From positions 1,862,001-1,926,000 of the forward strand of contig CM075992.1 in NCBI GenBank assembly GCA_038087875.1: 64,000 bases of DNA, written 5' to 3'. Below the pieces are notes generated by a model. The model made no database searches. It was not told the DNA's origin and saw only the letters and a program-made list of their open reading frames with translations. Positions 43 to 62,661 of the stretch are shown here, in pieces. This stretch comes from Malacoraja senta (taxonomy: Eukaryota). Each line of letters opens with the position of its first letter. Position 1 is the stretch's first letter. The position numbers and the translations under genes were made by a program.

Positions 43-141
43 CTTGATATATTTGAGAAGGGACTCCAATGTCAGGTTGAGGAACTAAAATATCTTTGAC
101 TCCATCTCTGATAGTTTGCTGTTCGCTGGGATAAACTGCTT
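43..141 (-). CDS. Internal coding exon D of unidentified minus-strand gene (99 bp, phase 1-1)
   Basis: atttatttttag|AAGCAG...TATCAAG|gtttga; reads (E)AVYPSEQQTIRDGVKDILVPQPDIGVPSQIYQ(G); same length and similar C-terminal half as exon 1897-1995. Confidence 0.55.
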
Positions 142-1896
142 CTAAAAATAAATATTTTGAAACTCACATCAGAACTTTTCTGCAGTTTATTCATTTTTTC
201 TTTACTTTGCTTTCCAGCTTTATGCATTAAAGTCTTGCATTCATTTATTTGGTAATATTTCTCCTTAGAAAATCTCATTGACCAAGATCTCTCCTCAGAA
301 ATGCATCTAACATTTTGCAACATTAAAGGTACTCAGAAAATATCAATTATTGTATTGTAGAATTATGCCTCATCTCATCAAACCACTTAATTATATTATA
401 TTTTGAAGTATATTTGAACATAATTTTGATTCCCACTTAAGCAGTCATCCTTGATTTGGTGCAATGGTAACTCTAAAGTTCTTAAGGCACGAGTCTTAGT
501 CAATTGCTGAGATGACATGTATATAAACTTAACGTTGCCTGATGCAAATCTTATGAAATGGTTGTTGACTTGTCTTTGATTCAATAATGATTACAGTTAA
601 CAAGAAGAGTGTCAATCATGTCCCAAGTTAAGAATCTGCATAAATTAACAATTCAAGATGCATTTAAAAAAACATTGCGCACTCATAGTAGTAACTTTAC
701 AAACCACTTTAATGGAGCGATGGAATTAAAAGCATCTCATAGAATATTAGTGATACTGAGCCACATGGTGGTCTAAGGATAAATGAACACAAATTTGAAC
801 AAGGGTAGATTTTATAGATGTGTGTTGAAGGAAGAAAGAAGGTAGAGAAGCAGAAAACTTTAGGGAAGTAATTCCATAGTTTAAGATGTCGGCGGTGGCT
901 AGTGGTGGAGTGATTACACCTGGGGTTGGTTTATTCTACAACTATAGGACTGCTACAAACTGATTGCAAATGTTCTCCTGTATTAAAAAATACTGTGCAA
1001 TCTGAGTGGATTCTTTTGACTACACAAAGATCTCTTGCAAGCAGAAGATGGCAGTTTACAACCATCATCTCAATAATGGCAGGCTAATAAATGCTCACAT
1101 GTCAGCAACACCTGAATTCCAAGAATGAAGGGGGGAAAAAATCAACTATTTCTGATAAGTTCCCTATACTAAAGACTTTCTGGATAAAAGAAACTCTCCT
1201 AAATTCTTTATTGGTTTTATAACTATCTTTATCATATGATCCAAGTTTTGGTTTCCTTTACAACTGAAAGCATAAGGGTGAAGAATAGATTTACCAGAAT
1301 GGTGCCACAGATATAGAACTTCAGTTACAAGGAAAACATACATGTCTGCAATTCTTCACAGATCTGTGATTGAAAGCTGTGAATCATTGAAAACTTAAAG
1401 AGTTTTATTGAGTAATCAGAAACTGTCATTTATTAAAATGAAGATTTATAGTAACTAGCTAAAGAAGCAGAGTGCTGTAATAATCTGGAATAGACTGTGT
1501 GAAAGGTTAGAGCAGTAGATTTCATCAATGCTTTCGAAAGGGACATGGAAAGATACTGTGAGGAAAGTACCATGGGTTAAAGTTAAGAAAAGTAGTGATT
1601 AAGCTCCAAGAGAACTAAATGAACGTCCTCTCTCTACTATATGACAATATATGATCTTATATTACTGACTGTTTTTGATCTCTCCTATAAGTTGAAATTA
1701 CTCCTTATCTACTCTATCAAAACCTATAATTATAGAGACCTCCATTATAACACCCTTCATCCTCTTTCAGGTTCTATTAGAAAATCAAATCATCTTTGTA
1801 ACTTAGAGATTGAGGATGTTATTTATCCATGCACATACAATCACAAAAGCCTCGTTACTGTACTGTCCATTACAGAATCTTGGATTTTTTCCACAC

Positions 1897-1995
1897 CTTG
1901 ATATACATGCGGAGACAGTCTTGATGGAGGTACAGGTAAATAATATTCTTTACGTTTCTTATTTTGTTCTTCATCTAATATGCCTCCTTGATTAC
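1897..1995 (-). CDS. Internal coding exon C of unidentified gene (99 bp, phase 1-1)
   Basis: aatcctctag|GTAATC...TATCAAG|gtgtgg; reads (R)NQGGILDEEQNKKRKEYYLPVPPSRLSPHVYQ. Confidence 0.55.
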
Positions 1996-2205
1996 CTAGA
2001 GGATTTGCAAAGAGATATTTTACAACTGTAGTATTAGAATTGTTAAAATGATAAAGTTCAAATTTGACATTGATATAAAGTGAAAAAAAAATAACAATGA
2101 AAATGTATTAACCATAATGGAACATAATTAAGAGGACCGCTGATACCCAATTTCTAATACTCCCAATGATGAATTAACACCACCACCCAACCACTGTTTT
2201 TTTAT

Positions 2206-2398
2206 GTGTTGGAAAGAACTGCAGATGCTGACTTAAATTGAAGGTAGACACAAAATGCTGGAGTACCTCAGCGGGACAGGCAGCATCTGGAGAGAAGAAA
2301 TGGGTGACGTTTCAGGTCTTGACCCGAAACGTCACCCATTCCTTCTCATCAGAGTTGCTGCCTGTCCCGCTGAGTTACTCCAGCATTTTGTGTCTACC
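2206..2398. mobile_element. Penelope-derived fold-back short repeat (inverted pair)
   Basis: Long arms gtagacacaaaatgctggagt... / ...actccagcattttgtgtctac centred on ggtcttgacc; direct repeat ACCACTGTTTTTTTAT at 2190-2205 and 2396-2411. Confidence 0.8.
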
Positions 2399-2692
2399 AC
2401 TGTTTTTTTATCATAAGTTTTGCTTGTTCTTTATCGTAGTCATTTGTCTCAGTGTAATTTCTCCTGTTCTCTACCTACTATTATCCATCACGATAAATAT
2501 AATAATTATTAACCTCACATATTTGTAAATTAGAACAATCTCATCCATAATTTGGAATCTCTGTCCTATGCTTTGTTCATAAATCATGACAACCATCCCT
2601 GCTCACATATGCCTCAACAAAAGATTATGATGGACAGATAACAGTTATGTTTTACATAATAAATACTCCATTTGTGACGTTTTGTTACTCAC

Positions 2693-2785
2693 GAAAAACT
2701 GTGTAATATCGTCTTCTACGAATAAATGACTGGCTGTTTTCCTGCTGCTTTGCTTTGGGAAATGGAAGCACTTTCTTTGAATGGT
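2693..2785 (-). CDS. Internal coding exon B of unidentified gene (93 bp, phase 1-1)
   Basis: ttttgattatttcag|ACCATT...TTTTC|gtgagt, both sites strong; reads (D)HSKKVLPFPKAKQQENSQSFIRRRRYYTVF. Confidence 0.6.
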
Positions 2786-3996
2786 CTGAAATAATCAAAA
2801 ATGTCAGTTTAACAAATATCACATGATGTGGCAGCTCACTGTGATAACTTCCCAAGACAGCACATTACATTGTTTTTTTTAGTCGTGTAAGTAGGATCTT
2901 ATAGCTATCAATATACAAAGAAACCATGGCATATAATTTTTGGTAGAAGTCAAACAAAAAACTAAATCATAGTCAAAATAATGGACTACCAATGGCTTGC
3001 AAGAGACCTTGAGGCTTGGAGGTGACATATGCAGGTTATGCATCCAGCTACAAGATTTCTGAACTTGAGGAAGTACGCAAGTCATTGCGAAGTATAAGAA
3101 AGGCTGAGAGATTCCTGGACTGTACATTCTAGGAGGTTGCAACTTTACAGATGATTTTAAAAGAGATAAGTTAAATACTTTTGAGGACAAATGGATTTTA
3201 AGAACTGCCAATTAAAGGTCATTGTCAGCAAATCCTTGGTGATAATAAAAAATCTATTTGTGGAAAATTTGTGTGATGTTGAAAATTTAGATTCAGATTA
3301 TTAATGTTACTGTCAAGTAAATAAAAGTATACCCAAAAAAACTGATGGAACATTTGTTTTCATCACATCATGGACAAAATATAAAAATCACAATATAATG
3401 ATGGTTTAATAACTCTGGATTCCACTCCACAAGAAGGTTATGCAAACAAAGAATATGCTAAACTGCATATTCAAATATCACCTTCCGTTTTGAAGTCATG
3501 ACTCACAAATGCAGTTTTATGGACTAGGACCAGTGAAAGGAAACATAGTACACCAAGAAGCATCAGCTGCAGGATAAAGAAGGAAAAGCAGGAGAAATCC
3601 CACCGAGTACTCTAGGTATCAATCACAGACTAAGAGTGATATTTTCAACTCTGAATCTGAAGGTTGCAGGCTGAGGCCCAAATGAAGACACAACAGATAA
3701 TTAAACTAAACCAACAATGTTATGCAATATAGGGGAGTTTTAAACTATAAGAAGCACTTTTTTGCAGATGAGATATTAAATCGAAATGCTGTTTTCTCTC
3801 TCAAATTGATGGAAAAAGATTCCAGAGCACTAACTGAGCAATGGATTTCTTTCCATACATTGACTAATATTCACCCCTCACTTAAAACACTTTGCACTGT
3901 GTATTCTAGGCTCTAGATGTCCCCGATATCTTGCCACACTGTACCAGAAATATTAAAATGGTCCAAGGTCACGTGTTTTGGAGAACACTATCTATA

Positions 3997-5006
3997 CAGT
4001 AAACCCTTGTTATTAGGACCATGGAGGGGATGGAGGCGGAGTGTCCGTTATTGCCGATTTTCCATAATAATCGAATAAAGTATTATCATTGTATGTAGTT
4101 GAAGCAAAGAACTGCAGATGATGATTAATACGCATAAGACTCAAAGTGCTAGAATAACTCAACAGGTCAGGCAGCATCTCTGGCGAACATGGATGGGTGA
4201 CATCGGGACCTTTCAGATTGACTCAGTCTGTGAGTTACTTCATCACTTTGTGTCGCTTCACCTTGAAACTGGCACTGATGCCAATGGTCTGCACCTGCGA
4301 GCCCTTCTTCAAGAGGAGCCGCACCATCCGGTTGAAGTGGCTGTTGTTGCAGCTCACATTGTAGCTCCTGGGGCAGCGCTTTCTTCAAGCTGCTGCCACC
4401 ATCAACAGGACGCACTCAGTCACAGAGGGGCTCCTTCCTCCTCACCAACTGCCGCTTTTTTTAAAAACCAAAACTAATTTAAATCAATTATTTACAAAAA
4501 TGATATGTACAAAATACAAAACAATACAAACAAACCCACCACCATCATGCAAAGTAAAACATGATTCTAAATATTAAATTTCCCCATCTTTATTGAGGAT
4601 ACATTCCACTCCCTCCGTGCCATGCCCAACGGTCCCGGAAATCCCCCAGAAACTGCCGCCTCTATCTGTTGACCATCACTTTATCTGCTCCTTATGCTCT
4701 GCTGTTGCTCTGTCCACTCGGCCTCTCCCCCGACAGGAAGAAGCAGCGGCAGGTGGAAGGGGAGACCCACGGTATCCGAGCATGCCGTCGGTGGCCTGAA
4801 GAAAACGCTGTCCCCAGGGGCTATAACGCGAGCAACAACAGCCGTATCAACAGCCGTGCGGTGGGTGAAGAAGGGCTCGCTGGTGCACCTTGTAAGCCGG
4901 GACTGGAAGCGGATGGGGAGGGTGCGAGCTGGGGATGGCGTCGGCGGGTACGTACACTATAACCCAAATCCGTTATCATGGGGTCTGTTAAATCAAGGGT
5001 TTACTG
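3997..5006. mobile_element. Tigger/pogo-like non-autonomous DNA element with nested inserts
   Basis: 13-bp TIR CAGTAAACCCTTG / CAAGGGTTTACTG, TA on left flank; contains a Penelope-type fold-back (~4100-4265) and a probable Tx1-like LINE 3' fragment on minus (~4455-4670, GDFRDRWA...GVECILN). Confidence 0.55.
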
Positions 5007-5124
5007 TTATGGTTTGAAACTAACAGCAAAGGTAAATAGTGAGTATACTACTTTACAACATGCCTGATCAATAGGACATGTAAAGTTTCATTTACCATTG
5101 TTTGACTGTAGCAGTATACCTCAC

Positions 5125-5238
5125 CTCCATGCAGTTTGGAAGAATGTTCATTCCTATGTTCCAGCATAGAAATTGGACCAGAATATCTCTGATTGTCCTC
5201 TTCAGGTGTAGCTCTCCATTCATTTAGACGAACAAGTG
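5125..5238 (-). CDS. Internal coding exon A of unidentified gene (114 bp, phase 1-1)
   Basis: gcttcatttcag|CACTTG...ATGGAG|gtgagg; reads LVRLNEWRATPEEDNQRYSGPISMLEHRNEHSSKLHG. Confidence 0.6.
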
Positions 5239-5344
5239 CTGAAATGAAGCACAGTATGGGAATCATTACATACATGTAAATAAATGTGGGTAAGCAAACC
5301 GTTGTTCTCTAACTTTAACTGTGACTACAAATATAGACTGCAAG

Positions 5345-8295: not shown

Positions 8296-8910
8296 CATAC
8301 GTATAGTTGTGAATGTTGCTCATTAAATAACTACAGTACTGATATTCCATATTAAGAGCATTGATTTGCCGTTAAAATGAATTCTGTAATAACGTGTCAA
8401 CAGCAGCAGTGACAATCGAACACTGCGGTTTTAATGTTTCACGTGTTCACAATTTAATTAATCCATCTTTATGGATTAAAACAAATAATAACATTGGGAA
8501 TTAAACACATTTGATTGCATTCCGTTATCAAACATAGTCAATGTTCGCTCTGAAGACATTTCCAGCACAATAGGGTCAGGGAGGGGTGTGTGTGTGAATC
8601 AGTGCGGGGTGGATAGATGGCGGGGGGTGGGGGGGGGGTTAGAAGGCAGTCGGTGCAGAATGGATGGATTGAGGCAGGTGAATAAGTACGTGTTGGTTGG
8701 AGTAGTGTAGGATGGATGCGGGGGAGTGGCAGGAGAATCAATGCGAGGTGGATAGGGTGATCAGCGTAGGATGAATAGATGGGGGGGGGTAGATGGGGAG
8801 GGGAGCACAGGGGATGTCAGTGAGGACTGAATTAGAGGCGGGAATGGGGATCAGTGCGGGATGGAGTGGAGGGGTCCCAGGATTAAGGGGGGGGGTGGAG
8901 GGGGGGTACA

Positions 8911-8942
<32 letters not shown>

Positions 8943-9116
8943 GGGGAGCTAGGTGGGGAGGAAGGAAGGTCAGCGCTCCTCGGACAACATCGCCCCGCTG
9001 CCTTGGCCGTTGGGAACTCCTCGCCACCGCCTCCCTCCTCCGCCAGCCAACAGCAAGGTGTGGGCCGGGCGGTGCAGCTCAGAGATCCTATAGGATCTTT
9101 GGTGCAGCTGCTTCAG

Positions 9117-9586
9117 ACGCGACGTTTCGTGTCGGCGGCTGTTGTGCGGGGCAAAGATACTAGGTGCGGGGTGAGGAAGGGTCGGAGCGAATGACGGGTC
9201 CCGCACAGCGGCAACAGCGGCCGCAAACAGCAGCTCCATCTCCTCCTCCTCCCGCACCCCGCCCGCCCAGATAAGGACCTCTGCTTGTAAACCCGCTAAT
9301 GGCGCTTTCCAAACAAACTCTCCCGCACTCCAAGGCCTCCCCCTCCCTCCCTCCTCCCGGCCTCGGAGTGCGGGAGTTTGTTTGAAAGCGCCGTTAGCGG
9401 GTTTACAAGCAGAGGCCCTTATCTGGGCGGGCGGGGTGCGGGAGGAGGAGGAGATGGAGCCGCTGTTGCGGCCGCTGCTGCCGCTGTTCGGGACCCGTCA
9501 TTCGCTCTGACCCTTCCTCACCCCGCACCTAGTATCGTTGTCGGCGCGGCGGCAGCACAGCCGCCGCCGACACGAAACGTCGCGTT
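9117..9586. repeat. Long GC-rich inverted repeat (~220-bp arms, ~20-bp pyrimidine loop)
   Basis: 9117-9337 is the near reverse complement of 9359-9586; mirrored ORFs 8970-9257(-) and 9378-9611(+) share AVRDPSFA.TLPHPAPSI. Confidence 0.9.
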
Positions 9587-11215
9587 CCTTTTCTCCAGAG
9601 ATGCTGCCTGACCCGCGGAGTTACTCCAGTTTTTTGTGTCTATCTTCGGTACAAACCAGTATCTGGTTGCCAAGCCGGGCAAAATGACTCGGTGTTTAGG
9701 TTGCCCGGCGGCGCTTTGAGTGGTCAGTGGCACCTGGGCAACCGCTAATTTTGAGCCCTGGTATAGATAAGTTTTTAGTCTTGACTTAAAGGAGTCGATG
9801 GAGGGGGAAGTTCTGATGGGAAGGGGGATGCTGTTCCACAGTCTAGGAGCTGCAACCGCAAAGGCGCGGTCGCCCCTGAGCTAATGCCTAGACCGCGGGA
9901 TATTCAGCAACCCCAAGTCCGGCCGATCTGAAGACCTGGAGGTGGAGTGGTGGGTAAGAAGACTTTTGATGTAGGTGGGGGCAAGCCCATTGAGGGCTTT
10001 GTAGACATAGAGGAGGATCTTGAAATGTATACGGAACCGCACAGGGAGCCAGTGCAGAGAGGCCAGGATCGGGGTGATGTGCTCCCTTTTCGGGTGCCCG
10101 TCAGGAGTCTCGCTGCGGCGTTTTGGACCAGTTGCAGGAGGGACAGGGAAGATTGGCTGATGCCAGTGTAAAGGGAGTTGCAGTAATCTAGGCGGGAGGA
10201 GATAAATGTGTGGATGATCTTTTCGAGGTCATCAAAGTGGAGGAATTGTTTTATTTTAGCTATCGTCCGAAGCTGAAAGAAGCTAGCTTTTACCACGGCA
10301 TTGACTTGTTTGTCAAATTTCAGTGCTGAGTCAAATATCACGGCCAAGGTTTTTGACGTGAGGTTTGAGTAGTGGGGTAAGGCTTCCAAGGCTGCCTGCT
10401 ATCATTTTGATTGAGTCCGAGGGGCCGAGAAGGATGACCTCAGACTTACTCACGTTTAGTTGGAGGAAGTTCTGGGCCATCCAACACTTTATATCTTCGA
10501 GGCAGTGGGTAAGGTTAAGCAGATTTGATTGGTTTTGGGCTTCAGGGGGAGATAGAGTTGTGTATCGTCTGCGTAGCTGCTCGGAACCGGCCCTGCTGAG
10601 TGTCCCCCCATGAACTGTCTCCCTCGGATGGTCACGTCGCACATCGACCCAGCACAAACCCATTTGCACTTAATACTGTTTTAACTGGGGTTTTTTAAAC
10701 TTGTTTTTCTGGGTGTCTAAAATTTTAGCTAATTAAGTTATTACAACGGATGGAAGTTGCATTCCAAATCTCGTTGTACCTCTGTGCAATATAAAAGATA
10801 TATTATTATTATTATTATTATTGTGACACTTATAACAGTATATTCCGCTATTTGGGAGAGCTGTCTGCAAATATTCCATCAACAAAGCTCAGCACACTTA
10901 ATGCAGATAGCACACGAACACAAGACAACATACTTTGGCTTATCAACTGTCTCTGTATCCACAGAATGAAGGGAGATATTTCTGCCACCGTTTCTACTTT
11001 TCCTCATCGCAGATAAATTAATCGGTTTAGTTTTTAAATTACATTACTGCTTGAGTTAGAAGAATACAGATTGATCAACCAACCCCAGATGATTCAAAGA
11101 TCATGGTTGAGTGTGCAGGAAGCTTTTGTTGCAGTAAGAGTTGTGTATATTGAGATAATGATCCAGGTTTTTCTGAGTGGAACTCAATTCCTGCACATAA
11201 ACTATTCTTGTAGGG

Positions 11216-11405: not shown

Positions 11406-11605
11406 NNNNNNNNNNNNNNNNNNNNNNNNNNNNNNNNNNNNNNNNNNNNNNNNNNNNNNNNNNNNNNNNNNNNNNNNNNNNNNNNNNNNNNNNNNNNNNN
11501 NNNNNNNNNNNNNNNNNNNNNNNNNNNNNNNNNNNNNNNNNNNNNNNNNNNNNNNNNNNNNNNNNNNNNNNNNNNNNNNNNNNNNNNNNNNNNNNNNNNN
11601 NNNNN
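11406..11605. other. Assembly gap (200 N)
   Basis: Run of N, flanked by repeats on both sides. Confidence 1.
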
Positions 11606-23578: not shown

Positions 23579-24890
23579 GAAGGTACACAAAAATGCTGGA
23601 GAAACTCAGCGGGTGCAGCAGCATCTATGGAGCGAAGGAAATAGGTAACGTTTCGGGCCGAAACCCTTCTTCAGACTGATAGGGGGTGGGGAGAGAAAGG
23701 AAAAAAGGAAAAGGAGGAGGAGGAGCCCGAGGGGCTGGGGGAGGGGCGGAGACAACCAGATGGCTGATGAAGGGGAGGGGACAGCCAGGGCTAGCAGAAT
23801 TGGAAGAATTCAACGTTCAGGCCACCAGGATGTAGACTGCCCAAGCGGAATATGAGGTGCATTTCCTCCAATTTACGGTGTTGCTCGCTGTGGCCATGGA
23901 GGAGACCCAGGACAGAGAGGTCAGATACGGAATGGGAGGGGGAGTTGAAGTGCTGAGCCACCGGGAAGTCAGGTTGGTTATTGCGGACCGACCGGAGGTG
24001 TTCGGCGAAACGATCGCCAAGCCTCCGCTTGGTCTCACCGATGTAGATCAGCTGGCATCTAGAGCAGCGAATGCAATAGATGAGGTTGGAGGAGATGCAG
24101 GTGAACCTCTGTCGCACCTGGAACGACTGCTTGGGCCCTGGAATGGAGTGGAGGGGGGAAGTGAAGGGACAAGTGTTGCATCTCTTGCGGTTGCAAGGGA
24201 AAGTACCAGGGGAGGGGGTGGTATGGGAGGGAAGGGAAGAATTGACAAGGGAGTTACGGAGGGAGCGGTCTTTGCGGAAGGCAGACATAGGGGGAGATGG
24301 GAAGATGTGGCGAGTGGTGGGGTCACGTTGGAGGTGGCGGAACTGACGGAGGATCACTTGTTGTATGTGACGGCTGGTGGGGTGAAAGGTGAGGACTAGG
24401 GGGACTCTGCCTTTGTTGTGAGTGGGGGGATGGGGAGAGAGAGCAGTGTTGCGGGGTATGGCAGAGACCCTGGTGCGAGCCTCATCTATGGTGGAGGAGG
24501 GGAACCCCCGTTCCCTGAAGAATGAGGACATTTCAGATGCCCTGGTGTGGAACGCCTCATCCTGGGAGCAGATGCGGCGTAGACGGAGGAATTGGGAGTG
24601 GGGGATGGAGTCCTTACAGGAAGCAGGGTGGGAAGAAGTGTAGTCCAGATAGCCATGGGAGTCGGTAGGTTTGTAGTGGATGTCGGTAAGGAGTCTATCA
24701 CCTGTGATGGAGATAGTGAGGTCAAGGAATGGTAGGAAAGTGTCGGAAATGGTCCAGGTGTATTTGAGTGCCGGATGGAAGTTGGTGGTGAAGCGGATGA
24801 AGTCAGTCAGTTGTGTGTGGGTGCAGGATGTGGCACCAAAACAATCATCGATGTAGCGGAGGTAGAGGTCGGGGATGGGGCCCTGGTACG
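23579..24890 (-). mobile_element. Penelope-like retroelement, 5'-truncated (RT C-half + GIY-YIG endonuclease)
   Basis: Open frame from YQGPIPDLYLRYIDDCF through FLDL, YKPT to GIY-YIG; 9-bp TSD CAAGTGTTC (23570-23578 / 24891-24899). Confidence 0.95.
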
Positions 24891-25479
24891 CAAGTGTTCC
24901 TTGGCTGAAGATTGGTGATATGTCGTGAATCACCTGCCTCTGCCTGAGCACCGGATCCTCCCCCTCCACTCCCCTTCTCCTCCTAGTGCTTAGGGCCCGT
25001 CCCTGAAGCCAAGAAAGAGTTTGAACATTGTATCGCTGCCACCTGCCAAAGGTGCCACATCTGCAAGAAAATGGCAGCAGACTCTGAAAGCAAGATGTGT
25101 GTGTAACCATTTAGAGTATTCAGATGGACATGTTTGATGCTGAAGGAAGATGTGTAGCACAGGTCAATCTATTGTGTGATGGTGATGACCAGTACAGTTC
25201 CCTCTCTCCTGACTGGATGGCAGAATAACCCAAGTCAGGACAGCGATGAGCAACAGGTCCAGTGAATGCCCAGCGGGTACGTTGAACAGAATCTTGTGAT
25301 GGGTTATCTCCTCTGCTTCTCCCCACTCTCCGACGAAGACCAAAGGATTTATTAGTACTACTTTTTCACATTTTCAGTTCCGATTAAAGTTCCTTATTTG
25401 AAGCATCAACTCTTGTTCCTCTCTTCATTTTTGCTGGTCTGATCTGCAAAGCACTTCCAGAACATTATGCTTAACAGGA

Positions 25480-32304: not shown

Positions 32305-33470
32305 AATCAACTAAAGGTTGTAGTAATGAACTGAGGGCGGGACATTTTTCCTGTATTATGAATTGATGCAATGGGACAAACAGGTAGAGGTTGTTGGTCT
32401 TGTCGATGATGCGTGTAAGGTTCATCCTTTTGGATGCTTCAGCAAGCGATTCATCAATGTCTTGGAGTTCAGTTTCCAATTGTGCGTAAACACAAGCACT
32501 ATATGTATTCTGCAGCTGGACTTTATTCATTCAGATGACTTTGGAGTGAACAGTTTCCCATTAGTTCCGAAGATTAGCTCAACTCCCAACAGATGTGTGC
32601 TCAATGTGAGGTGTAACTCCGTAGCAAGAAAGTTGTGTGGCAATGAGTAATGTTGTTTGATAGTGATCTTCACTGAGTTTGGTTTGGTTGAAGACAAAGA
32701 GCAAAAAACGAGCTGTCTGAGGAGCTCCACTGGTCAAGCACCATCTGTAGCGGGAAACTGCCAATCAACATCTTGGTTTTGGGACTCTTCACCTGGACGG
32801 GGAATTTCCCTCCACAGATGCTGTTCAACCTGCTGAGTTCTTCCAGCAGCTCATTTTTTGCACCAGATTCCAGCATCTGCAATATCTTGTGTCTCTTTCG
32901 TAGACCTGTTGGTTAGTATCTTGTCTTGCATACCATGGTGAAGTAAACATAAGATGGAGAAACATTTCCGTGAGAGCCAAATTTGAGAAAATATTCTATT
33001 GCCCTCCAGACTGATGGAGTATACGGTTTTGATGGAATTTAAGAAGCCCATGCATATTCACTTTTATTGGAGTTGTCTTGTGGTGAAGATCATATCCATT
33101 ATGGCTCTAGATAGCCAGAATCCATGCTTTGATTCAGCTATTTGATGGCAGCTATTTGATCACGAGGAAGAGGCGGTTAAAGGGGACCCAGATGATGAAT
33201 TTCTCCGTGCTAGACAGCACAGAAATCAGTTACCATAGTCAGACTTTGCTCCTTTCTTTAAAGAACATCAACATTTTTGCATATCTGAGTTTCACCAATG
33301 CCTTCCAGATGAAGATGACGAGATTGTGGTTTTGCGAAAAAAAGTGTCACCAGCAGAACAGCTGAGGAATGGGTAGAACTTTAGTAACAACGCAAAGGTC
33401 GGTTTAAAGTTGAGCTGAAGATCAAAGATTCTGCACAGCAGTACCAAGCCCACATTGGCCTGAATGTCCC

Positions 33471-34960
33471 TGGAGTAGCTCCTGAGGACTGGAGGGTAGC
33501 TAATGTAACCCCACTTTTTAAACAGGGAGGGAGAGAGAAAACGGGGAATTACAGACCAGTTAGTCTAACATCGGTGGTGGGGAAAATTCTGGAGTCAGTT
33601 ATTAAAGATGGGATAGCAGCACATTTGGAAAGTGGTGATTTCATTGGACAAAGTCAGCATGGATTTATGAAAGGTAAATCATGTCTGACGAATCTTATAG
33701 AATTTTTCGAGGATGTAACTAGTAGAGTAGATAAGGGAGAACCAGTGGATGTGTTATATCTGGACTTTCAGAAGGCTTTCGACAAGGTCCCACATAAGAG
33801 ATTAGCATACAAACTTAAAGCACATGGTATTGGGGGTTCAGTATTGATGTGGATAGAGAACTGGCTGGCAGACAGGAAGCAAAGAGTAGGAGTAAACGGG
33901 TCCTTTTCAGAATGGCAGGCAGTGACTAGTGGGGTACCGCAAGGCTCAGTGCTGGGACCCCAGCTATTTACAATATATATTAATGATCTGGATGAGGGAA
34001 TTGAATGCAACATCTCCAAGTTTGCGGATGACATGAAGCTGGGGGGCAGTGTTAGCTGTGAGGAGGATGCTAGGAGGCTGCAAGGTGACTTGGATAGGTT
34101 GGGTGAGTGGGCAAAGGCATGGCAGATGCAGTATAATGTGGATAAATGTGAGGTTATCCACTTTGGTGGCAAAAACAGGAAAGTAGAATATTATCTGAAT
34201 GGTGGCCGATTAGGAAAAGGGGAGATGCAACGAGACCTGGGTGTCATGGTACACCAGTCATTGAAAGTAGGAATGCAGGTGCAGCAGGCAGTGAAGAAAG
34301 CAAATGGTATGTTAGCATTCATAGCAAAAGGATTTGAGTATAAGAGCAGGGAGGTTCTACTGCAGTTGTACAGGGTCTTGGTGAGACCACACCTGGAGTA
34401 TTGCGTACAGTTTTGGTCTCCTAATCTGAGGAAAGACATTCTTGCCATAGAGGGAGTACAGAGAAGGTTCACCAGACTGATTCCTGGGATGGCAGGACTT
34501 TCATATCAGGAAAGACTGGATAGACTCGGCTTGTACACGTTGGAATTCAGAAGACTGAGGGGGGATCTTATAGAAACTTACAAAATTCTTAAGGGGTTGG
34601 ACAGGCTAGATGCTAGAAAGATTATTCCCGATGTTGGGGAAGTCCAGAACTAGGGGTCACAGTTTAAGGATAAGAGGGAAGTCTTTTAGGACCGAGATGA
34701 GGAAATCATTTTTTACACAGAGAGTGGTGAATCTGCGGAACTCTCTGCCACAGAAGGTAGTTGAGGCCAGTTCATTGGCTATATTTAAGAGGGAGTTAGA
34801 TGTGGCCCTTGTGGCTAAAGGGATCAGGGGGTATGGAGAGAAGGCAGGGATGGGATACCGAGTTGGATGATCAGCCATAATCATATCAAATGGCGGTGCA
34901 GGCTAGAAGGGCCGAATGGCCTACTCCTGCACCTATTTTCTATGTTTCTATGTTTCTATG
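33471..34960 (+). mobile_element. CR1 LINE, 5'-truncated, with complete RT domain; one frameshift near 34617
   Basis: ORF 33574-34653 QHGFMKGKSCLTNL, LDFQKAFD, GVPQGSVLGP, FADD; (gtttctat)n tail. Confidence 0.97.
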
Positions 34961-36328: not shown

Positions 36329-36370
36329 ATCTTCTGCGTTCACTGCCAGGACACTGGTGCTCTTCTTCAT
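36329..36370 (-). CDS. PDE4B: First coding segment of a PDE4 long isoform (PDE4B1-like), cAMP-specific phosphodiesterase
   Basis: GCG-ATG...: MKKSTSVLAVNAED then gtgagt donor in phase 0; 9/14 identical to human PDE4B1 N-terminus MKKSRSVMTVMADD as I recall it, also a 14-codon segment; paralogue assignment (vs PDE4A8-type) not proven. Confidence 0.72.
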
Positions 36371-36561
36371 CGCGTGGCAAGCTTGGACAAGTCCTTGGAC
36401 AGGATCAGAGTCGGTGCCGTGCAAGATGTAGCCAGTTCAGTCAATAATTTAATGAGCTGCACGATGCTACATCAAGATGCTGTTCCTTGGCACCCACTTC
36501 TGCCCATCGATTTCAGCCTCTGCCTGTTATGCCCGGCATTTAAACAGTTTCTGACCACCTC
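36371..36561 (-). other. 5' UTR part of the PDE4B1-like exon
   Basis: Acceptor gcttttatttgcag|GAGGTG; all three frames closed before the ATG. Confidence 0.55.
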
Positions 36562-38543: not shown

Positions 38544-41500
38544 ACATAGATACATAGATACACAGAAAATAGGTGCAGGAGTAGGCCATTCGGCCCTTCG
38601 AGCCTGCACCGCCATTCAATATGATCATGGCTGATCATCCAACTCAGTATCCCGTACCTGCCTTCTCTCCATACCCCCTGATCCCTCTAGCCACAAGGGC
38701 CACATCTAACTCCCTCTTAAATATAGCCAATGAACTGGCCTCAACTACCCTCTGTGGTAGAGAGTTCCAGAGATTCACCACTCTCTGTGTGAAAAAGTTT
38801 TTCCTCATCTCGGTCTTAAAGGATTTCCCCCTTATCCTTAAGCTGTGACCCCTTGTCCTGGACTTCCCCAACATCGGGAACAATCTTCCTGCATCTAGCC
38901 TGTCCAACGCCATAAGAATTTTGTACGTTTCTATAAGATCCCCTCTCAATCTCCTAAATTCTAGCGAGTATAAGCCAAGTCTATCCAGTCTTTCTTCATA
39001 TGGAAGACCTGACATCCCAGGAATCAGTTTGGTGAACCTTCTCTGCACTCCCTCTATGGCTATAATGTCCTTCCTCAGATTTGGAGACCAAAACTGTACG
39101 CAATACTCCAGGTGTGGTCTCACCAAGACCCTGTACAACTGCAGTAGAACCTCCCTGCTCCTATACTCAAATCCTCTTGCTATGAAGGCCAACATACCAT
39201 TCGCTTTCTTCACTGCCTGCTGCACCTGCATGCCTACTTTCAATGACTGGTGTACCATGACACCCAGGTCTCGCTGCATCTCCCCATTTCCTAATCGGCC
39301 ACCATTTAGATAATAGTCTGCCTTCCCGTTTTTGCCACCAAAGTGGATAACCTCACATTTATCCACATTATACTGCATCTGCCAAACATTTGCCCACTCA
39401 CCCAGCCTATCCAAGTCACCTTGCAGTCTCCTAGCATCCTCCTCACAGCTAACACTGCCCCCCAGCTTAGTGGCATCCGCAAACTTGGAGATGTTGCTTT
39501 CAATTCCCTCGTCCAGATCATTAATATAAATTGTAAATAGCTGGGGTCCCAGCACTGAGCCTTGCGGTACCCCACTAGTCACTGCCTGCCATTGTGAAAA
39601 GGACCCGTTTACTCCTACTCTTTGCTTCCTGTTTGCCAGCCAGTTCTCTATCCACATCAATACTGAACCCCCAATACCGTGTGATTTAAGTTTGTATCCT
39701 AATCTCTTATGTGGTACCTTGTCGAAAGCCTTCTGAAAGTCCAGATACAACACATCCACTGGTTCTCCCCTATCCACTCTACTAGTTACATCCTCGAAAA
39801 ATTCTATAAGATTCGTCAGACACGATTTACCTTTCGTAAATCCATGCTGACTTTGTCCAATGATTTCACCACTTTCCAAATGTGCTGCTATCCCATCTTT
39901 AATAACTGACTCTAGCAGTTTCCCCACTACCGATGTTAGACTAACTGGTCTGTAATTCCCCGTTTTCTCTCTCCCTCCCTTCTTAAAAAGTGGGGTTACG
40001 TTTGCTACCCTCCAATCCTCAGGAACTACTCCAGAATCTAAAGAGTTTTGAAAAATTATCACTAACGCATCCACTATTTCTGGAGCTACTTCCTTAAGTA
40101 CTCTGGGATGCAGCCTATCTGGCCCTGGTGATTTATCGGCCTTTAATCCATTCAATTTACCCAACACCACTTCCCGACTAACCTGGATTTCACTCAGTTC
40201 CTCCATCTCCTTTGACCCGTGGCCCCCTGCTATTTCCGGCAGATTATTTATGTCTTTCTTAGTGAAGACGGAACCAAAGTAGTTATTCAATTGGTCCGCC
40301 ATATCCTTGTTCCCCATGATCAATTCACCTGTTTCTGACTGCAAGGGACCTACATTTGTTTTAACTAATCTCTTTCTCTTCACATATCTATAAAAACATT
40401 TGCAGTCAGTTTTTATGTTCCCTGCCAGTTTCCTTTCATAATCTATTTTCCCTTTCCTAATTAAGCCCTTTGTCCTCCTCTGCTGGTCTCTGAATTTCTC
40501 CCAGTCCTCTGGTATGCTGCTTTTTCTGGCTAATTTGTACGCATCATCTTTTGCTTTGATACTATCCCTGATTTCCCTTGTTATCCACGGATGCACTACC
40601 TTCCCTGATTTATTCTTTTGCCAAACTGGGATGAACAATTTTTGTAGTTCATCCATGCAGTCTTTAAATGCCTTCCATTGCATATCCACCGTCAACCCTT
40701 TTAGAACTAATTGCCAGTCAATCTTGGCCAATTCACGTCTCATACCCTCAAAGTTACCTTTCTTTAAGTTCAGAACCGTTGTTTCTGAATTAACAATGTC
40801 ACTCTCCATCCTAATGAAGAACTCAACCATATTATGGTCACTCTTGCCCAAGGGGGCACGCACAACAAGACTGCTAACTAACCCTTCCTCATTACTCAAT
40901 ACCCAGTCTAGAATAGCCTGCTCTCTCGTTGGTTCCTCTACATGTTGGTTTAGATAACTATCCCTCATACATTCCAAGAAATCCTCTTCCTCAGCACCCC
41001 TGCCAATTTGATTCACCCAATCTATATGTAGATTGAAGTCACCCATTATAACTGTTTTGCCTTTGTTGCACGCATTTCTAATTTCCTGTTTGATGCCATC
41101 CCCAACTTCACTACTACTGCTAGGTACACAACACCCACCAGCGTTTTCTGCCCCTTAGTGTTTCGCAGCTCTACCCATACCGATTCCACATCCTCCAAGC
41201 TAATGTCCTTCCTTTCCACTGCGTTAATCTACTCTCTAACCTGCAACGCTACCCCACCTCCTTTTCCTTTCTCTCTATCCCTCCTGAATATTGAATATCC
41301 CTGGATGTTCAGCTCCCAGCCTTGGTCACCCTGGAGCCATGTCTCCGTGATCCCAACTATATCATAATCATTAATTGCTATCTGCACGTTCAACTCATCC
41401 ACCTTATTACGAATGCTCCTTGCATTGAGACACAAAGCCTTCAGGCATGTTTTTACAACGCTCTTACCCCTTATACAATTATGATGAAAAGTGGCTCTTT

Positions 41501-48615: not shown

Positions 48616-49542
48616 AATTAAAGGATTGGTTTTAAAGTGGAGTGGATCTTGGACTTGGCAATAGGAGGCAATATTTGTGCAATGCATCAGGGTTACAGCA
48701 AAGAGCTTGATGGCCACACCCAGGCGTGTTCCAGCGATGACTGCAGCTCCTTGAGGAGCAGATCCTCTCTATGCCCTCTGGTGGAGAACATTTATGGAAA
48801 TGGAAATAAATATTTCTCAATTCGGTTGGCAAAGAACATTGAGTAAATGGAAACATAAAGGCCACAGAAATAAATGCACTAAGGATTTTAAAAGAACAAA
48901 GCAACGGTTATGAAATTAATCCAAAATAATGAAGCATTTGGAATACTGCTAACAATTTCATTTCTCAAGGGGATAATTCACATGGTTGCATTGAAGCCTT
49001 TAGTGACCAACTCCTGTAATAAATCAACTCATTAAATCTGCATGAAATAGATATTAATTAATAAAGAGAGTTTATTTTAACAATATTTGGAAGAAATAAT
49101 ATGATTAACTAGAATTTTTGATGCACGTGCATCTTCCCCCGCGCTTAGCTTAACTTCACTGAAGTTTCAACTGAGCTAATCTTAAGACTCACTGAAATCT
49201 TGGGAAAGAAATTATCCATTGAGGTACACAACAAAAGCCATACTGGAAACAATAAGAAAAGAAACTTAATTTTACGTTTTCAACAAGTCAGGTGAAAGTT
49301 GTAAACTCAGTAAAAGCAAAGCAACCCCACCCATATTAACGAAGGTTAACTCTTCGCAGGGAATGTGGGATGAATGAGGCTCAGCCTGAGAAATGTGGCA
49401 AAAAAGACAGTTAGATGAGACTAAGTGAAAATGCGATTAATTTTTGAAAGTTGGGGTATCCTCTTGATTCTTACCGAAATCTGCTGAATTTAGGTGGATA
49501 TAAGTAAACAAAGTCATCTAATATCATGATCAAGATTGCTTT

Positions 49543-51180
49543 ATATATCATAGTTTCGGGAGAAATTTATGCTACCCCAATAACTATGGTAAATATTTAC
49601 GCTCCGAATTTTGATAACCCTCAATTTTTTGAGAAAATTATAGATATAATACTGGAGTTTAATTATCAAAATGTCATAATAGGAGGGGATTTCAACTGTG
49701 TTTTAGATCCTTACTTAGACAAATCAGCAAAACAAAGAGGGAGTAATACAAAATCTAAGACTAGTGAATTTCTAAATACATATATAAAAAATACTAATAT
49801 AACAGATGTATGGAGATCTGCTAACCCAGCAGGAAGGGAATACTCGTTTTACTCTTCGGTACATAAAACATACTCAAGAATTGAGTCTGAAGAAGGGTTT
49901 CGGCCCGAAACTTTACCTATTTCCTTCGCTCCATAGATGCTGCTGCACCCGCTGAGTTTCTCCAGCATTTTTGTGTACCCTCAAGAATTGATTATTTGTT
50001 AGTGGATAGGAAATTAATGCCATATATAATTAACCCAACTTACCATATTAGTAGTATTTCTGATCACTCTCCATTGACTTTTTTAGTAAAATTTGAAGGA
50101 ATGCCGGGAAATAATTTTTTTTGGAGGTTTAACACATATATATTAAATGACTTACAGGGTTATCAATATTTGAAACAACAAATGATATCATTTTTTGAGA
50201 TAAATGATACACCAGGTACCTCACCTTCTTTAATATGGGAAACTTTTAAAGCATTTATTAGAGGAATTATAATTTCATATGAAATTTTTCAAAATAAGAA
50301 GAATAAAACAGAACAGATGCTGTTAGAACAAGAAATAAGACAATTAGAGTTAGATAATGCTAACGATCCCACTATAGATAAACATAATAAGATAATACTA
50401 CTGAAATTTAAACTTAACCGAATTCTCTCGGCAAGAGTAATAAGATTATTCCAAATTACAAAACAGGAACATTTTGAGTTTGGTGACAAACCACATAAGC
50501 TGTTGGCGCGTCAATTGAAAAAACAGGAAAAGGAAAATACTATAAATAAAATTATATCCGAGAATGGTGAATTACTAACACTACCTAAAGATATCAATAA
50601 AAGATTTGTTCAATTTTATCAAAATTTATACACATCAAAAACCAAAACAGAAGAAAGTAAAATTACAAACTTTTTAGATAAATGTAATCTACCAAAACTT
50701 GACCTTTTGGAACAAGAAGAACTAGGAGCGCAAATTACAATCGAAGAAATAGGTGAAACAATAAAATTGCTGAAAAATGGTAAGACACCGGGACCAGATG
50801 GTTTTAGTAATGAATTTTATAAAAAGTTTCATGAGATAACGACCCCCTATCTATTTAATTTATATACTCACGTTTTTAAAGAAAATAAATTACCTGAAAC
50901 ATTAGCAGAATCAACTATTACGCTTATTCCAAAGAAAGATAAAGATCTAGAGGAACCGGGCTCATATAGAGCTATATCACTTTTAAATACCGACCAGAAA
51001 ATTCTAGCAAAGACTTTAGCTAGAAGACTAAGCAAATATATTAGTAAATTGATAAACCCTGATCAAACAGGGTTTATACCCAAAAGATATTCATTTAATA
51101 ATTTGAGATGCCTGTTTAATATAATGTACTCACATAAAAAGGAAGAAAAAGACTTAACAATTATTTCTTTGGACGCAGAG
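49543..51180 (+). mobile_element. L1-clade ORF2 internal fragment (APE C-half to RT N-half)
   Basis: NIYAPN, GGDFNC, SDH, KTPGPDGF, SYRAISLLN, DQTGFI, SLDAEK; 11-bp TSD AAGATTGCTTT (49532-49542 / 51181-51191). Confidence 0.92.
49885..49979 (+). mobile_element. 95-bp Penelope-derived insert within the L1 fragment
   Basis: Starts gtctgaagaagggtttcggcccgaaac; TSD CTCAAGAATTGA (49873-49884 / 49980-49991); removal restores YSRIDYL in frame. Confidence 0.9.
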
Positions 51181-51454
51181 AAGATTGCTTTTCAGAAACA
51201 CCTTTCGGGACCTCAGATATCCCAAAGCCTTTCAAAAATATTGAAGTAGGTTAGTGGATATCTAGTTCTTAGCTGTGCTCATGTTCACCAGGAACGTCTT
51301 GTTGCCATTACACCCATCAGAAACATTGTATTTAAGCATTTAAGCTTCAGATATCTCTGAACTACAAACTGCAATTATCGCCGTTTGTCAATGTTGGGGA
51401 AGTGGCAGAGCCCAGCTATCTGCTTTTAACCAGCACCAGCCAGACAAACATGTA

Positions 51455-61232: not shown

Positions 61233-62661
61233 TAACATTCCATGTGCACATGGGATTATCCCCATTAACAAAATATATGCATCCAGTGGTGTTTTCCTTG
61301 CACTGGCTGCTGTGCAGAGTATTTACAGTAACTTCTGTTTTGATATTTGATACGAGTCCATCCCTTTAGTTTGTTACTTATATCCATGATTAGCCTTTTG
61401 AAGGCACAGAATCTTTCTCAGTTAGAGTCTATGGTGACAGCAAATCAACTATCTCTCCAAGTAGTGGTTACTCTTGATGATGCAGGCGATGCCCATGGCC
61501 AGTTTAACTGCAGAAGAAATTGGGGTCGAGCCCAATGCCATCCTCATAAGCATTCTGCCTGGCAGAGGCCAGAATAGTGGCCAGAAGAAAGAATCCACCA
61601 TGATTTACCTTTCTTACCCCAGAGACACTGAAAATGATCATAGCGTCCCTTCCACTGTTCCCACTGCAATCAGATAAGATTCAGCAGAGATCAGAATAGA
61701 GATCCCAAGAGTTCTGGACTGTAAGACTGAATTACCAACTGTTTTTTATTAAATAACCCATCAGTGAGAAACAATATCATTTCTATCCAATTTGAACACT
61801 GCTTTATATAAAAGAATTGATAACACAACATACAGCCAGAGTGAAACCACAAGAGCAAAATGTAGTCCTTTATAAAATTTGTCAACCACCACCCTTTACC
61901 CTCCTCAGCCAGCTACAACACACCCGTGGTCTACGGAAGAACCATACAGTGCTTTATACTGAAACCTGCCTATTGCCTCATGTTCAAAACTGCAACATGA
62001 CTTTCAAACAGCTAATCAGTGGCTGCAGTGAAACACATAACAATTTAAAGAAAATTAGATTGAGATACACGAGAGATTCACAAGAAATTAAAGCGTTGCA
62101 AAGACCAGCAGAAAATATATGATTTAAAAAAAATACAAGACTAAGGCACGATCACTATCATTGGTTAAAATACAGCCAGATTCTGCAGCAGCTCACTGTG
62201 AGGTTCAAAAACGAAGCGTGCAGCGAGATAAAACTGAGGCTCACCTTTATAATAACTGAGAATGGTTAGGTCAGTCAGTTACAAGGAGAGAATCTATAAA
62301 GGGAAGATTGTCCAAAAATAAAAATCCCCAGCTCTTGCACAGGAGAACCCCATTCACAGAACCTTCTCTTTGTTTATCAACGTGCGCAGCCTGACGATGT
62401 GGCAGCTCAGTTAATCACTGTGTGCAGAGCGAGAGAGAGAGAGAGAGAGAGAGTACAGAAGGGAAGCAAGGAAAGACTGCGGATCCAGCGGAGCTTGTGA
62501 ATAAAGAAAGAGCTGTGATATGTGCTTGTGAGTGTGGACGTGTGTGTGTGTGTGTGTGAGTGAGTGAGTGAGTGTATGTGTGTGTGTGTGTGTGTTGGGG
62601 GGGGAGCGACGGTGGAACTATACAGGGAGATTCTTGCAGTGCTTCTTATAGATTCACTTCC

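Follow-up and report, generated by a model that had tools for sequence, protein, structure and literature searches.

The window analysed here is a stretch of 64,000 nucleotides (nt) from the skate Malacoraja senta (contig CM075992.1, positions 1,862,001 to 1,926,000 of the forward strand). Its left end carries, on the minus strand, four small coding exons of an uncharacterised gene, numbered 1 to 4 in the order of transcription and encoding the protein modules A to D (Table 1). The remainder of the window consists mainly of long and short interspersed nuclear elements (LINEs and SINEs) and other repeats. Judged by their sequence, these exons supply the outer two thirds of an ectodomain, that of a single-pass type I membrane protein of cartilaginous fishes.

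Exon structure and identity of the gene

Each of the four exons is preceded by AG and followed by GT, has a length divisible by three and is free of repeat overlap within the window. The introns between them are 2339, 697 and 1755 bp long. After splicing, the phase-1 frame contains no stop codon and both other frames contain stops. A first-pass annotation of the window had proposed four minus-strand GT-AG exons of phase 1-1 in one stop-free frame, and all of its coordinates as well as its peptide could be reproduced. A list of stop-to-stop frames of at least 70 amino acids (aa) includes the frames of exons 1 and 3 and misses those of exons 2 and 4, and a simple splice-site filter run over the window recovered three of the four exons. 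Two contig sets, their type unrecorded, showed no joint at these limits among the best 15 of about 1000 entries, which is uninformative on splicing.

A search with exon 1 gave one match among six candidates, namely isoform X2 (257 aa) of Leucoraja erinacea LOC129714397, whose isoform X1 is 277 aa long. A tblastn comparison placed all four exons in order along residues 41-175 of this protein (E values of 5e-19, 2e-14, 1e-15 and 1e-16), and 123 of the 131 whole-codon residues are identical (94% over the four exons). The modules of the LOC129714397 model comprise 38, 31, 33 and 33 codons, which are the sizes of the window exons, and the exon limits agree with those of the model. Because each exon matches this protein in order and the module sizes equal the exon sizes, the four exons, on sequence grounds, are not a product of chance. 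The earlier view of a real multi-exon gene continuing left of the window is borne out. It is nearly certain that the gene is the skate orthologue of L. erinacea LOC129714397 and that its product has the type I anatomy described below, gene identity and anatomy being taken together.

Table 1. Features of the window (position 1 is its first letter; residues are those of the L. erinacea protein)
Feature	Position	Strand	Description
Module A coding exon (exon 1)	5125..5238	-	114 bp, phase 1-1, AG/GT; residues 41-78, 34/37 identical; cassette exon, first ectodomain exon past the signal-peptide exon
Module B coding exon (exon 2)	2693..2785	-	93 bp, phase 1-1, AG/GT; residues 79-109, 28/30 identical; bears the polybasic site
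Module C coding exon (exon 3)	1897..1995	-	99 bp, phase 1-1; residues 110-142, 30/32 identical; cassette exon; Pro-rich P-x-P-P-x-R...H-x-Y repeat
Module D coding exon (exon 4)	43..141	-	99 bp, phase 1-1; residues 143-175, 31/32 identical; cassette exon; probable old duplicate of module C
RRRR, candidate furin/proprotein-convertase site (R-X-K/R-R)	2709..2720	-	in module B; read from sequence
Assembly gap	11406..11605	.	200 N, sole N run in the window; 6.2 kb upstream of exon 1, repeats on both flanks
Short separate exon	36329..36561	-	ATG at 36370, 14 codons (36370-36329), phase-0 donor; not part of the membrane-protein gene
Long open frame, presumed retroelement	38644-41154	-	836 aa
Long open frame, presumed retroelement	33388-34653	+	421 aa
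Long open frames, presumed retroelement	49508-51249	+	142+452 aa
Long open frame, presumed retroelement	23791-25110	-	439 aa

Uncharacterised RefSeq models with colinear exons represent the same gene in L. erinacea (XP_055519951/2), Rhinoraja (LOC144610593), Carcharodon (LOC121271401), Cetorhinus (LOC144668998) and Chiloscyllium (LOC122552459), and further such models are those of Hemiscyllium (LOC132835837), Scyliorhinus (LOC119957214), Heptranchias (XP_067828889) and Callorhinchus (LOC103190215). The gene is annotated in all of these, yet without a name, a family or a function. The label "unidentified" given in the first-pass annotation thus holds in the sense of uncharacterised, but the gene already stands in RefSeq under several LOC identifiers. 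A literature search with 12 identifiers and keywords, most subscription papers and supplements lying outside its reach, returned nothing on the gene family.

With the full skate protein as query, 13 proteins were found among 628 candidates; an exhaustive phmmer search returned five proteins at E<=0.001, and a profile of nine sequences gave 23 matches at E<=10 among the best 8000 scored candidates, all 23 of them chondrichthyan. Of five representative matches, two were excluded throughout: P0017, which is repetitive and shows no matched stretch, and P0016, a call of 44 aa that covers a single genomic exon. The final set comprises 35 models from 13 species, all chondrichthyan, namely 12 elasmobranchs and the chimaera Callorhinchus milii. 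Against a profile from which it had been left out, the Callorhinchus protein reaches 81.8 bits, and its ectodomain alone scores 48.9 bits where the maximum after shuffling is 8.5, so that by sequence it is a true relative. The word-based, phmmer and profile searches with full-length proteins revealed no relative in bony vertebrates. The restriction of the gene to chondrichthyans is therefore one of sequence detection only, and it is limited by detection because such searches lose fast-evolving disordered proteins, the word-based ones requiring shared 5-mers. The gene had earlier been called lineage-specific, and sequence searching agrees with this, except that the lineage comprises all cartilaginous fishes and not a narrow clade.

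Pfam assigned no family to any of the four exon peptides, and for 14 full proteins it gave only sub-threshold matches driven by the transmembrane segment, for example Orf78 and LapA_dom. Matches in NCBIfam were all under the cut-off, no solved structure in the PDB matched at E<=1, and the neighbours in a structure atlas had TM scores of at most 0.29 by query.

Protein anatomy and cassette exons

The aligned members share a short N-terminal hydrophobic stretch, followed by an ectodomain of 150-230 residues, a Y-W-x-x-G-Q-R-R-F-R block, a long hydrophobic segment and a short basic tail, and in the family proteins a His-rich stalk exon lies between the ectodomain modules and the transmembrane segment. 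In each of the five proteins tested, one hydropathy peak lies at the N-terminus and another close to the C-terminus. At one position past the N-terminal hydrophobic core, A or G is present in all 12 elasmobranch species, and a small residue after the core is expected at a signal-peptidase site. The ectodomain lacks Cys and is rich in Pro, His, Glu and Arg, not in Ser and Thr. A mucin-like stalk protein was considered and rejected, as Ser and Thr together make up only 5-10% of the ectodomain in six of six proteins. AlphaFold2 modelling of the Heptranchias protein P0015 gave a mean predicted local distance difference test score of 52.9 with confidence only at the transmembrane helix, and the model contains helices only in the signal segment, a short piece of the stalk and the transmembrane segment. 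Taken together, sequence and model predict a type I membrane protein with a disordered ectodomain. The transmembrane exon is expected left of base 1 of the window.

The transmembrane segment is present in 28 of the 33 elasmobranch models. The product had earlier been described as secreted; entry into the secretory pathway is supported, but most of the models are type I membrane proteins and forms without the segment are a minority of isoforms.

A reversed topology, with the large segment in the cytosol (held by an uncleaved N-terminal anchor or by tail-type anchoring) and with the basic runs binding acidic lipids or serving in sorting instead of being cleaved, appears quite improbable to us. 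It would agree with the basic residues that flank the transmembrane segment on both sides in all aligned species, with the Cys-free composition and with the lack of any conserved N-glycosylation sequon in the aligned ectodomains. However, the N-terminal segment is short, lies close to the start Met, ends in the conserved small residue and is followed by a phase-1 intron. According to the accessible part of PMC1626468, phase-1 introns are over-represented at signal-peptide cleavage sites. The type I orientation is the one that we follow below.

The presence of each module was scored by per-module profiles over the 33 elasmobranch models, eight of which had served to build the profiles. Module A is absent from 3 models, B from none, C from 2 and D from 7 (one of these models being truncated), and further absences concern a module E of sharks (14 models), the His-rich exon (2) and the transmembrane segment (5). 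The deletions in the models coincide with the exon limits of the window. Three models without the transmembrane segment, from Carcharodon and Cetorhinus, retain the whole ectodomain, and as predicted from their sequence these forms would be soluble. The five residues that precede module A in isoforms of Carcharodon, Cetorhinus and Hemiscyllium resemble the translated end of the intron here (5239-5253). This would fit the use of another acceptor, 15 nt further upstream, in these sharks; the dinucleotide there is AC in the window, not AG.

Module C is the best-conserved block of the ectodomain. Its profile matches that of module D with an E value of 2.4e-4, the top value and the only notable one among 15 module pairs. 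At the DNA level, 41 of 99 bases are identical between exons 3 and 4 as against 27 by shuffling, and the peptide comparison within the window alone is marginal (p 0.044). A Callorhinchus model contains a clearer tandem pair of module C (score 76, shuffle maximum 49). Modules C and D are thus probably old duplicates. In human genes, symmetric exons, disorder, alternative splicing and tandem duplication are associated with each other, as stated in the accessible part of PMC3632108. The same four traits, as read from sequence and predicted models, occur together in the present gene, which places it in a general architecture class and not in a family.

In five Pristiophorus models (P0028, P0004, P0011, P0013 and P0026), residues 20-44 form a 25-codon in-frame cassette that is a fragment of a LINE reverse transcriptase, 84-88% identical to three LINE copies present in the window.

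The basic site and a proposed mode of action

Furin and related proprotein convertases recognise the consensus R-X-K/R-R. At the column of the exon-2 basic site, this strict form is found in 10 of the 13 species, Callorhinchus included, and at least R-X-X-R in 12 of the 13; L. erinacea has RGRR where the window has RRRR. A strict motif occurs anywhere in 9-33% of shuffled ectodomains. The furin site proposed in the first-pass annotation is therefore upheld as a conserved column of convertase type, whereas cleavage itself is a prediction from sequence.

The conserved basic run would also suit a precursor of a peptide hormone or neuropeptide, the strongest form of the reading in the first-pass annotation, in which short peptides are released from between basic sites and the transmembrane segment is merely a sorting anchor. 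The models from Carcharodon and Cetorhinus that lack the transmembrane segment share a nearly identical alternative tail, and the repeated P-P-x-R-M-x-P-H-x-Y block is the best-conserved part of the ectodomain. However, KKRK in exon 3, the window's second basic run, is specific to skates and is replaced by G-H-K in most sharks, so that no short peptide has a conserved site on each side. The alignments contain no conserved Gly-basic amidation signal, and 2 of the 33 models skip even the conserved block. A peptide precursor is in our opinion improbable.

Taken instead as a membrane-tethered pro-protein, the chain would be led into the endoplasmic reticulum by a signal peptide of about 15 residues. 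It would then reach the late Golgi, because it lacks a conserved dilysine retrieval signal, and a furin-like convertase would cut past the exon-2 basic run, freeing about 65-70 residues from the N-terminal side. What is left, a stalk rich in Pro, His and Glu (modules C, D and E and the His-rich exon), would be exposed at the cell surface or inside a secretory vesicle, possibly as a short-motif binding or spacer arm; the second basic patch (RRFR), next to the membrane on its outer side, might serve as a shedding site. Splicing would tune the length of the stalk and the number of its repeats, without frameshift because all ectodomain exons are of phase 1-1, and skipping of the transmembrane exon would yield soluble forms. 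It is somewhat probable that a furin-like convertase processes the tethered pro-protein in this manner. The most likely role would be that of a processed membrane-tethered ligand or an adhesion or recognition molecule in the manner of PIANP and AJAP1; we infer the processing, the display and the ligand role from sequence features and by analogy.

According to the accessible part of PMC7577901, PIANP has type I topology and is cut by furin-like convertases, by ADAM10/17 and by gamma-secretase. The skate family resembles PIANP and AJAP1 in type I topology and in a furin-type motif in the ectodomain, both read here from sequence. It differs in a tail of only about 10-15 basic residues, in Cys-free repeat modules on cassette exons and in being found only in chondrichthyans. 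None of 14 members matches AJAP1_PANP_C (PF15298) at E<=1, and since this defining domain of the PIANP family is absent, the gene would work like PIANP without being a member of that family.

Several observations weigh against the processed type I protein proposed here. A basic patch lies just before the transmembrane segment (RRFR; KKKRFK in Callorhinchus), an uncommon feature on the outer side of type I proteins, and the signal peptide has been called from hydropathy and alignment. The exons for the signal peptide and the transmembrane segment lie outside the window, so the full frame in this genome is deduced from relatives. His content is 6% in the skate and 3% in the chimaera as against 9-11% in sharks, and therefore a His-rich stalk is not a family-wide function. 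At the exon-2 site, Carcharodon and Cetorhinus have only the minimal R-X-X-R and Narcine has H-R-K-R, which with H at P4 fits neither form of the motif; as for the minimal form, 48-94% of shuffled ectodomains contain one at some place. Because of the kinship among species and among isoforms, the counts lack independence and amount to one conserved site, not to 12 trials. All isoforms are predicted models, and NCBI isoform models usually rest on RNA-seq. The exonised LINE fragment is present in five of the seven Pristiophorus models, so that some isoforms are probably splicing noise.

A language-model comparison returned C2orf92 (0.89), PIANP (0.88) and equatorin (0.87) as top neighbours of the skate protein, the bar of the tool being 0.9. 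These neighbours share 148-154 of 256 features with it (C2orf92 148), where family members typically share 170, and with the Callorhinchus protein as query the same neighbour families drop to 0.76-0.78. Equatorin, C2orf92, TMEM154 and podoplanin are alike in overall anatomy, being disordered type I proteins with small exons (feature scores of 0.76-0.89). However, the Pfam families Afaf (PF15339), TMEM154 (PF15102) and podoplanin (PF05808) were not matched at E<=1 by any of the 14 members, and the ectodomain here, in contrast to all four of these proteins, is not Ser/Thr-rich. C2orf92 was not among the matches of the word, phmmer and profile searches. We regard C2orf92, PIANP, equatorin and TMEM154 as leads on anatomy only.

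These neighbours raise the possibility that bony vertebrates have an orthologue from which the gene has diverged fast, one that encodes a disordered type I protein, most likely a sperm or acrosomal one of the equatorin or C2orf92 sort. The lineage restriction would then be a limit of detection; such an origin would be compatible with the processed type I protein. Two skates already differ at 8 of 131 residues and identity is down to about 30% in Callorhinchus, so that detection would fade beyond Callorhinchus; the word searches depend on shared 5-mers, and the last one scored 8000 candidates only. Against such an orthologue speak the neighbour scores, all below 0.9 and lower still from Callorhinchus, the numbers of shared features below 170, the lack of Afaf, AJAP1_PANP_C and TMEM154 matches, and the exhaustive phmmer search, whose five matches include no bony-vertebrate protein. 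We treat a diverged orthologue of this kind as a tentative possibility that has a modest chance of being correct.

The family is a real, annotated and undescribed chondrichthyan one of familiar architecture. The gene has been kept since the split of sharks and chimaeras, and conservation of a processing-type site while most of the sequence drifted points to a maintained function. If the gene truly has no orthologue in bony vertebrates, it offers a handle on the surface and secretory biology of cartilaginous fishes, or else it is a jawed-vertebrate gene lost in bony fishes. One may further imagine an ancient cartilaginous-fish family of convertase-activated tethered ligands, in which combinatorial splicing sets repeat number and solubility for a chondrichthyan process, for example gamete recognition in internal fertilisation, the gene possibly being nested in a 5' intron of PDE4. 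In this full form the proposal is speculative and unlikely to hold.

Upstream context and repeats of the window

The signal-peptide exon was not found in the window: the best score over 3257 stop-free stretches was 7.5 bits, as compared to about 50 bits on true members, and tblastn gave nothing. The assembly gap upstream of exon 1 may hide this exon, or it may mark a misjoin.

Further upstream lies a short separate exon, which we take to resemble the first coding exon of long PDE4 isoforms (PDE4B1/PDE4A8). The main text of PMC2929239, which contains no sequence that would confirm this likeness, describes the N-termini of PDE4B1 and PDE4A8 as each derived from two exons. Neither the second N-terminal exon nor any of five PDE4 core motifs was found in the window. 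With its expected partner exon not found, the short exon raises the possibility that the membrane-protein gene sits inside PDE4; provided that the scaffold was joined correctly, it would be nested there on the same strand, within a 5' intron.

That the four exons belong to the PDE4-like transcript, or arose by chance or as a pseudogene, has a negligible probability. In its favour, the PDE4-like exon shares the strand at a distance of 31 kb upstream, and no first exon belonging to the membrane-protein gene itself was found in the window. However, a phase-0 donor cannot join a phase-1 acceptor in frame, which precludes an in-frame fusion, and all four frames and their splice sites are intact. 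The gene's own signal-peptide module starts all 33 elasmobranch models. The phase mismatch, together with the lack of a Pfam match, and so of PDE4 UCR or catalytic-domain sequence, for all four exon peptides, agrees with the first-pass annotation, in which the protein was described as not PDE4-like.

On the minus strand, a unique stretch at 62273-62410 ends in a strong donor and adjoins a CA-repeat block; the PDE4-like gene might begin here with a non-coding exon.

The GC-rich segment at 8751-10000 was considered as a promoter or first exon and rejected, being a high-copy inverted repeat. Within it, positions 9117-9585 form a GC-rich, near-perfect palindrome of about 470 bp with arms of 87, 75 and 31 nt at 94-95%. 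The palindrome sits in an insertion of about 2.3 kb with inverted ends which splits a LINE and looks like a non-autonomous DNA transposon. The four stretches of long open frames listed in Table 1 are presumably of the retroelement class, the one at 38644-41154 being, as we take it, a nearly whole endonuclease-reverse transcriptase frame. Their openness suggests fairly recent insertions.

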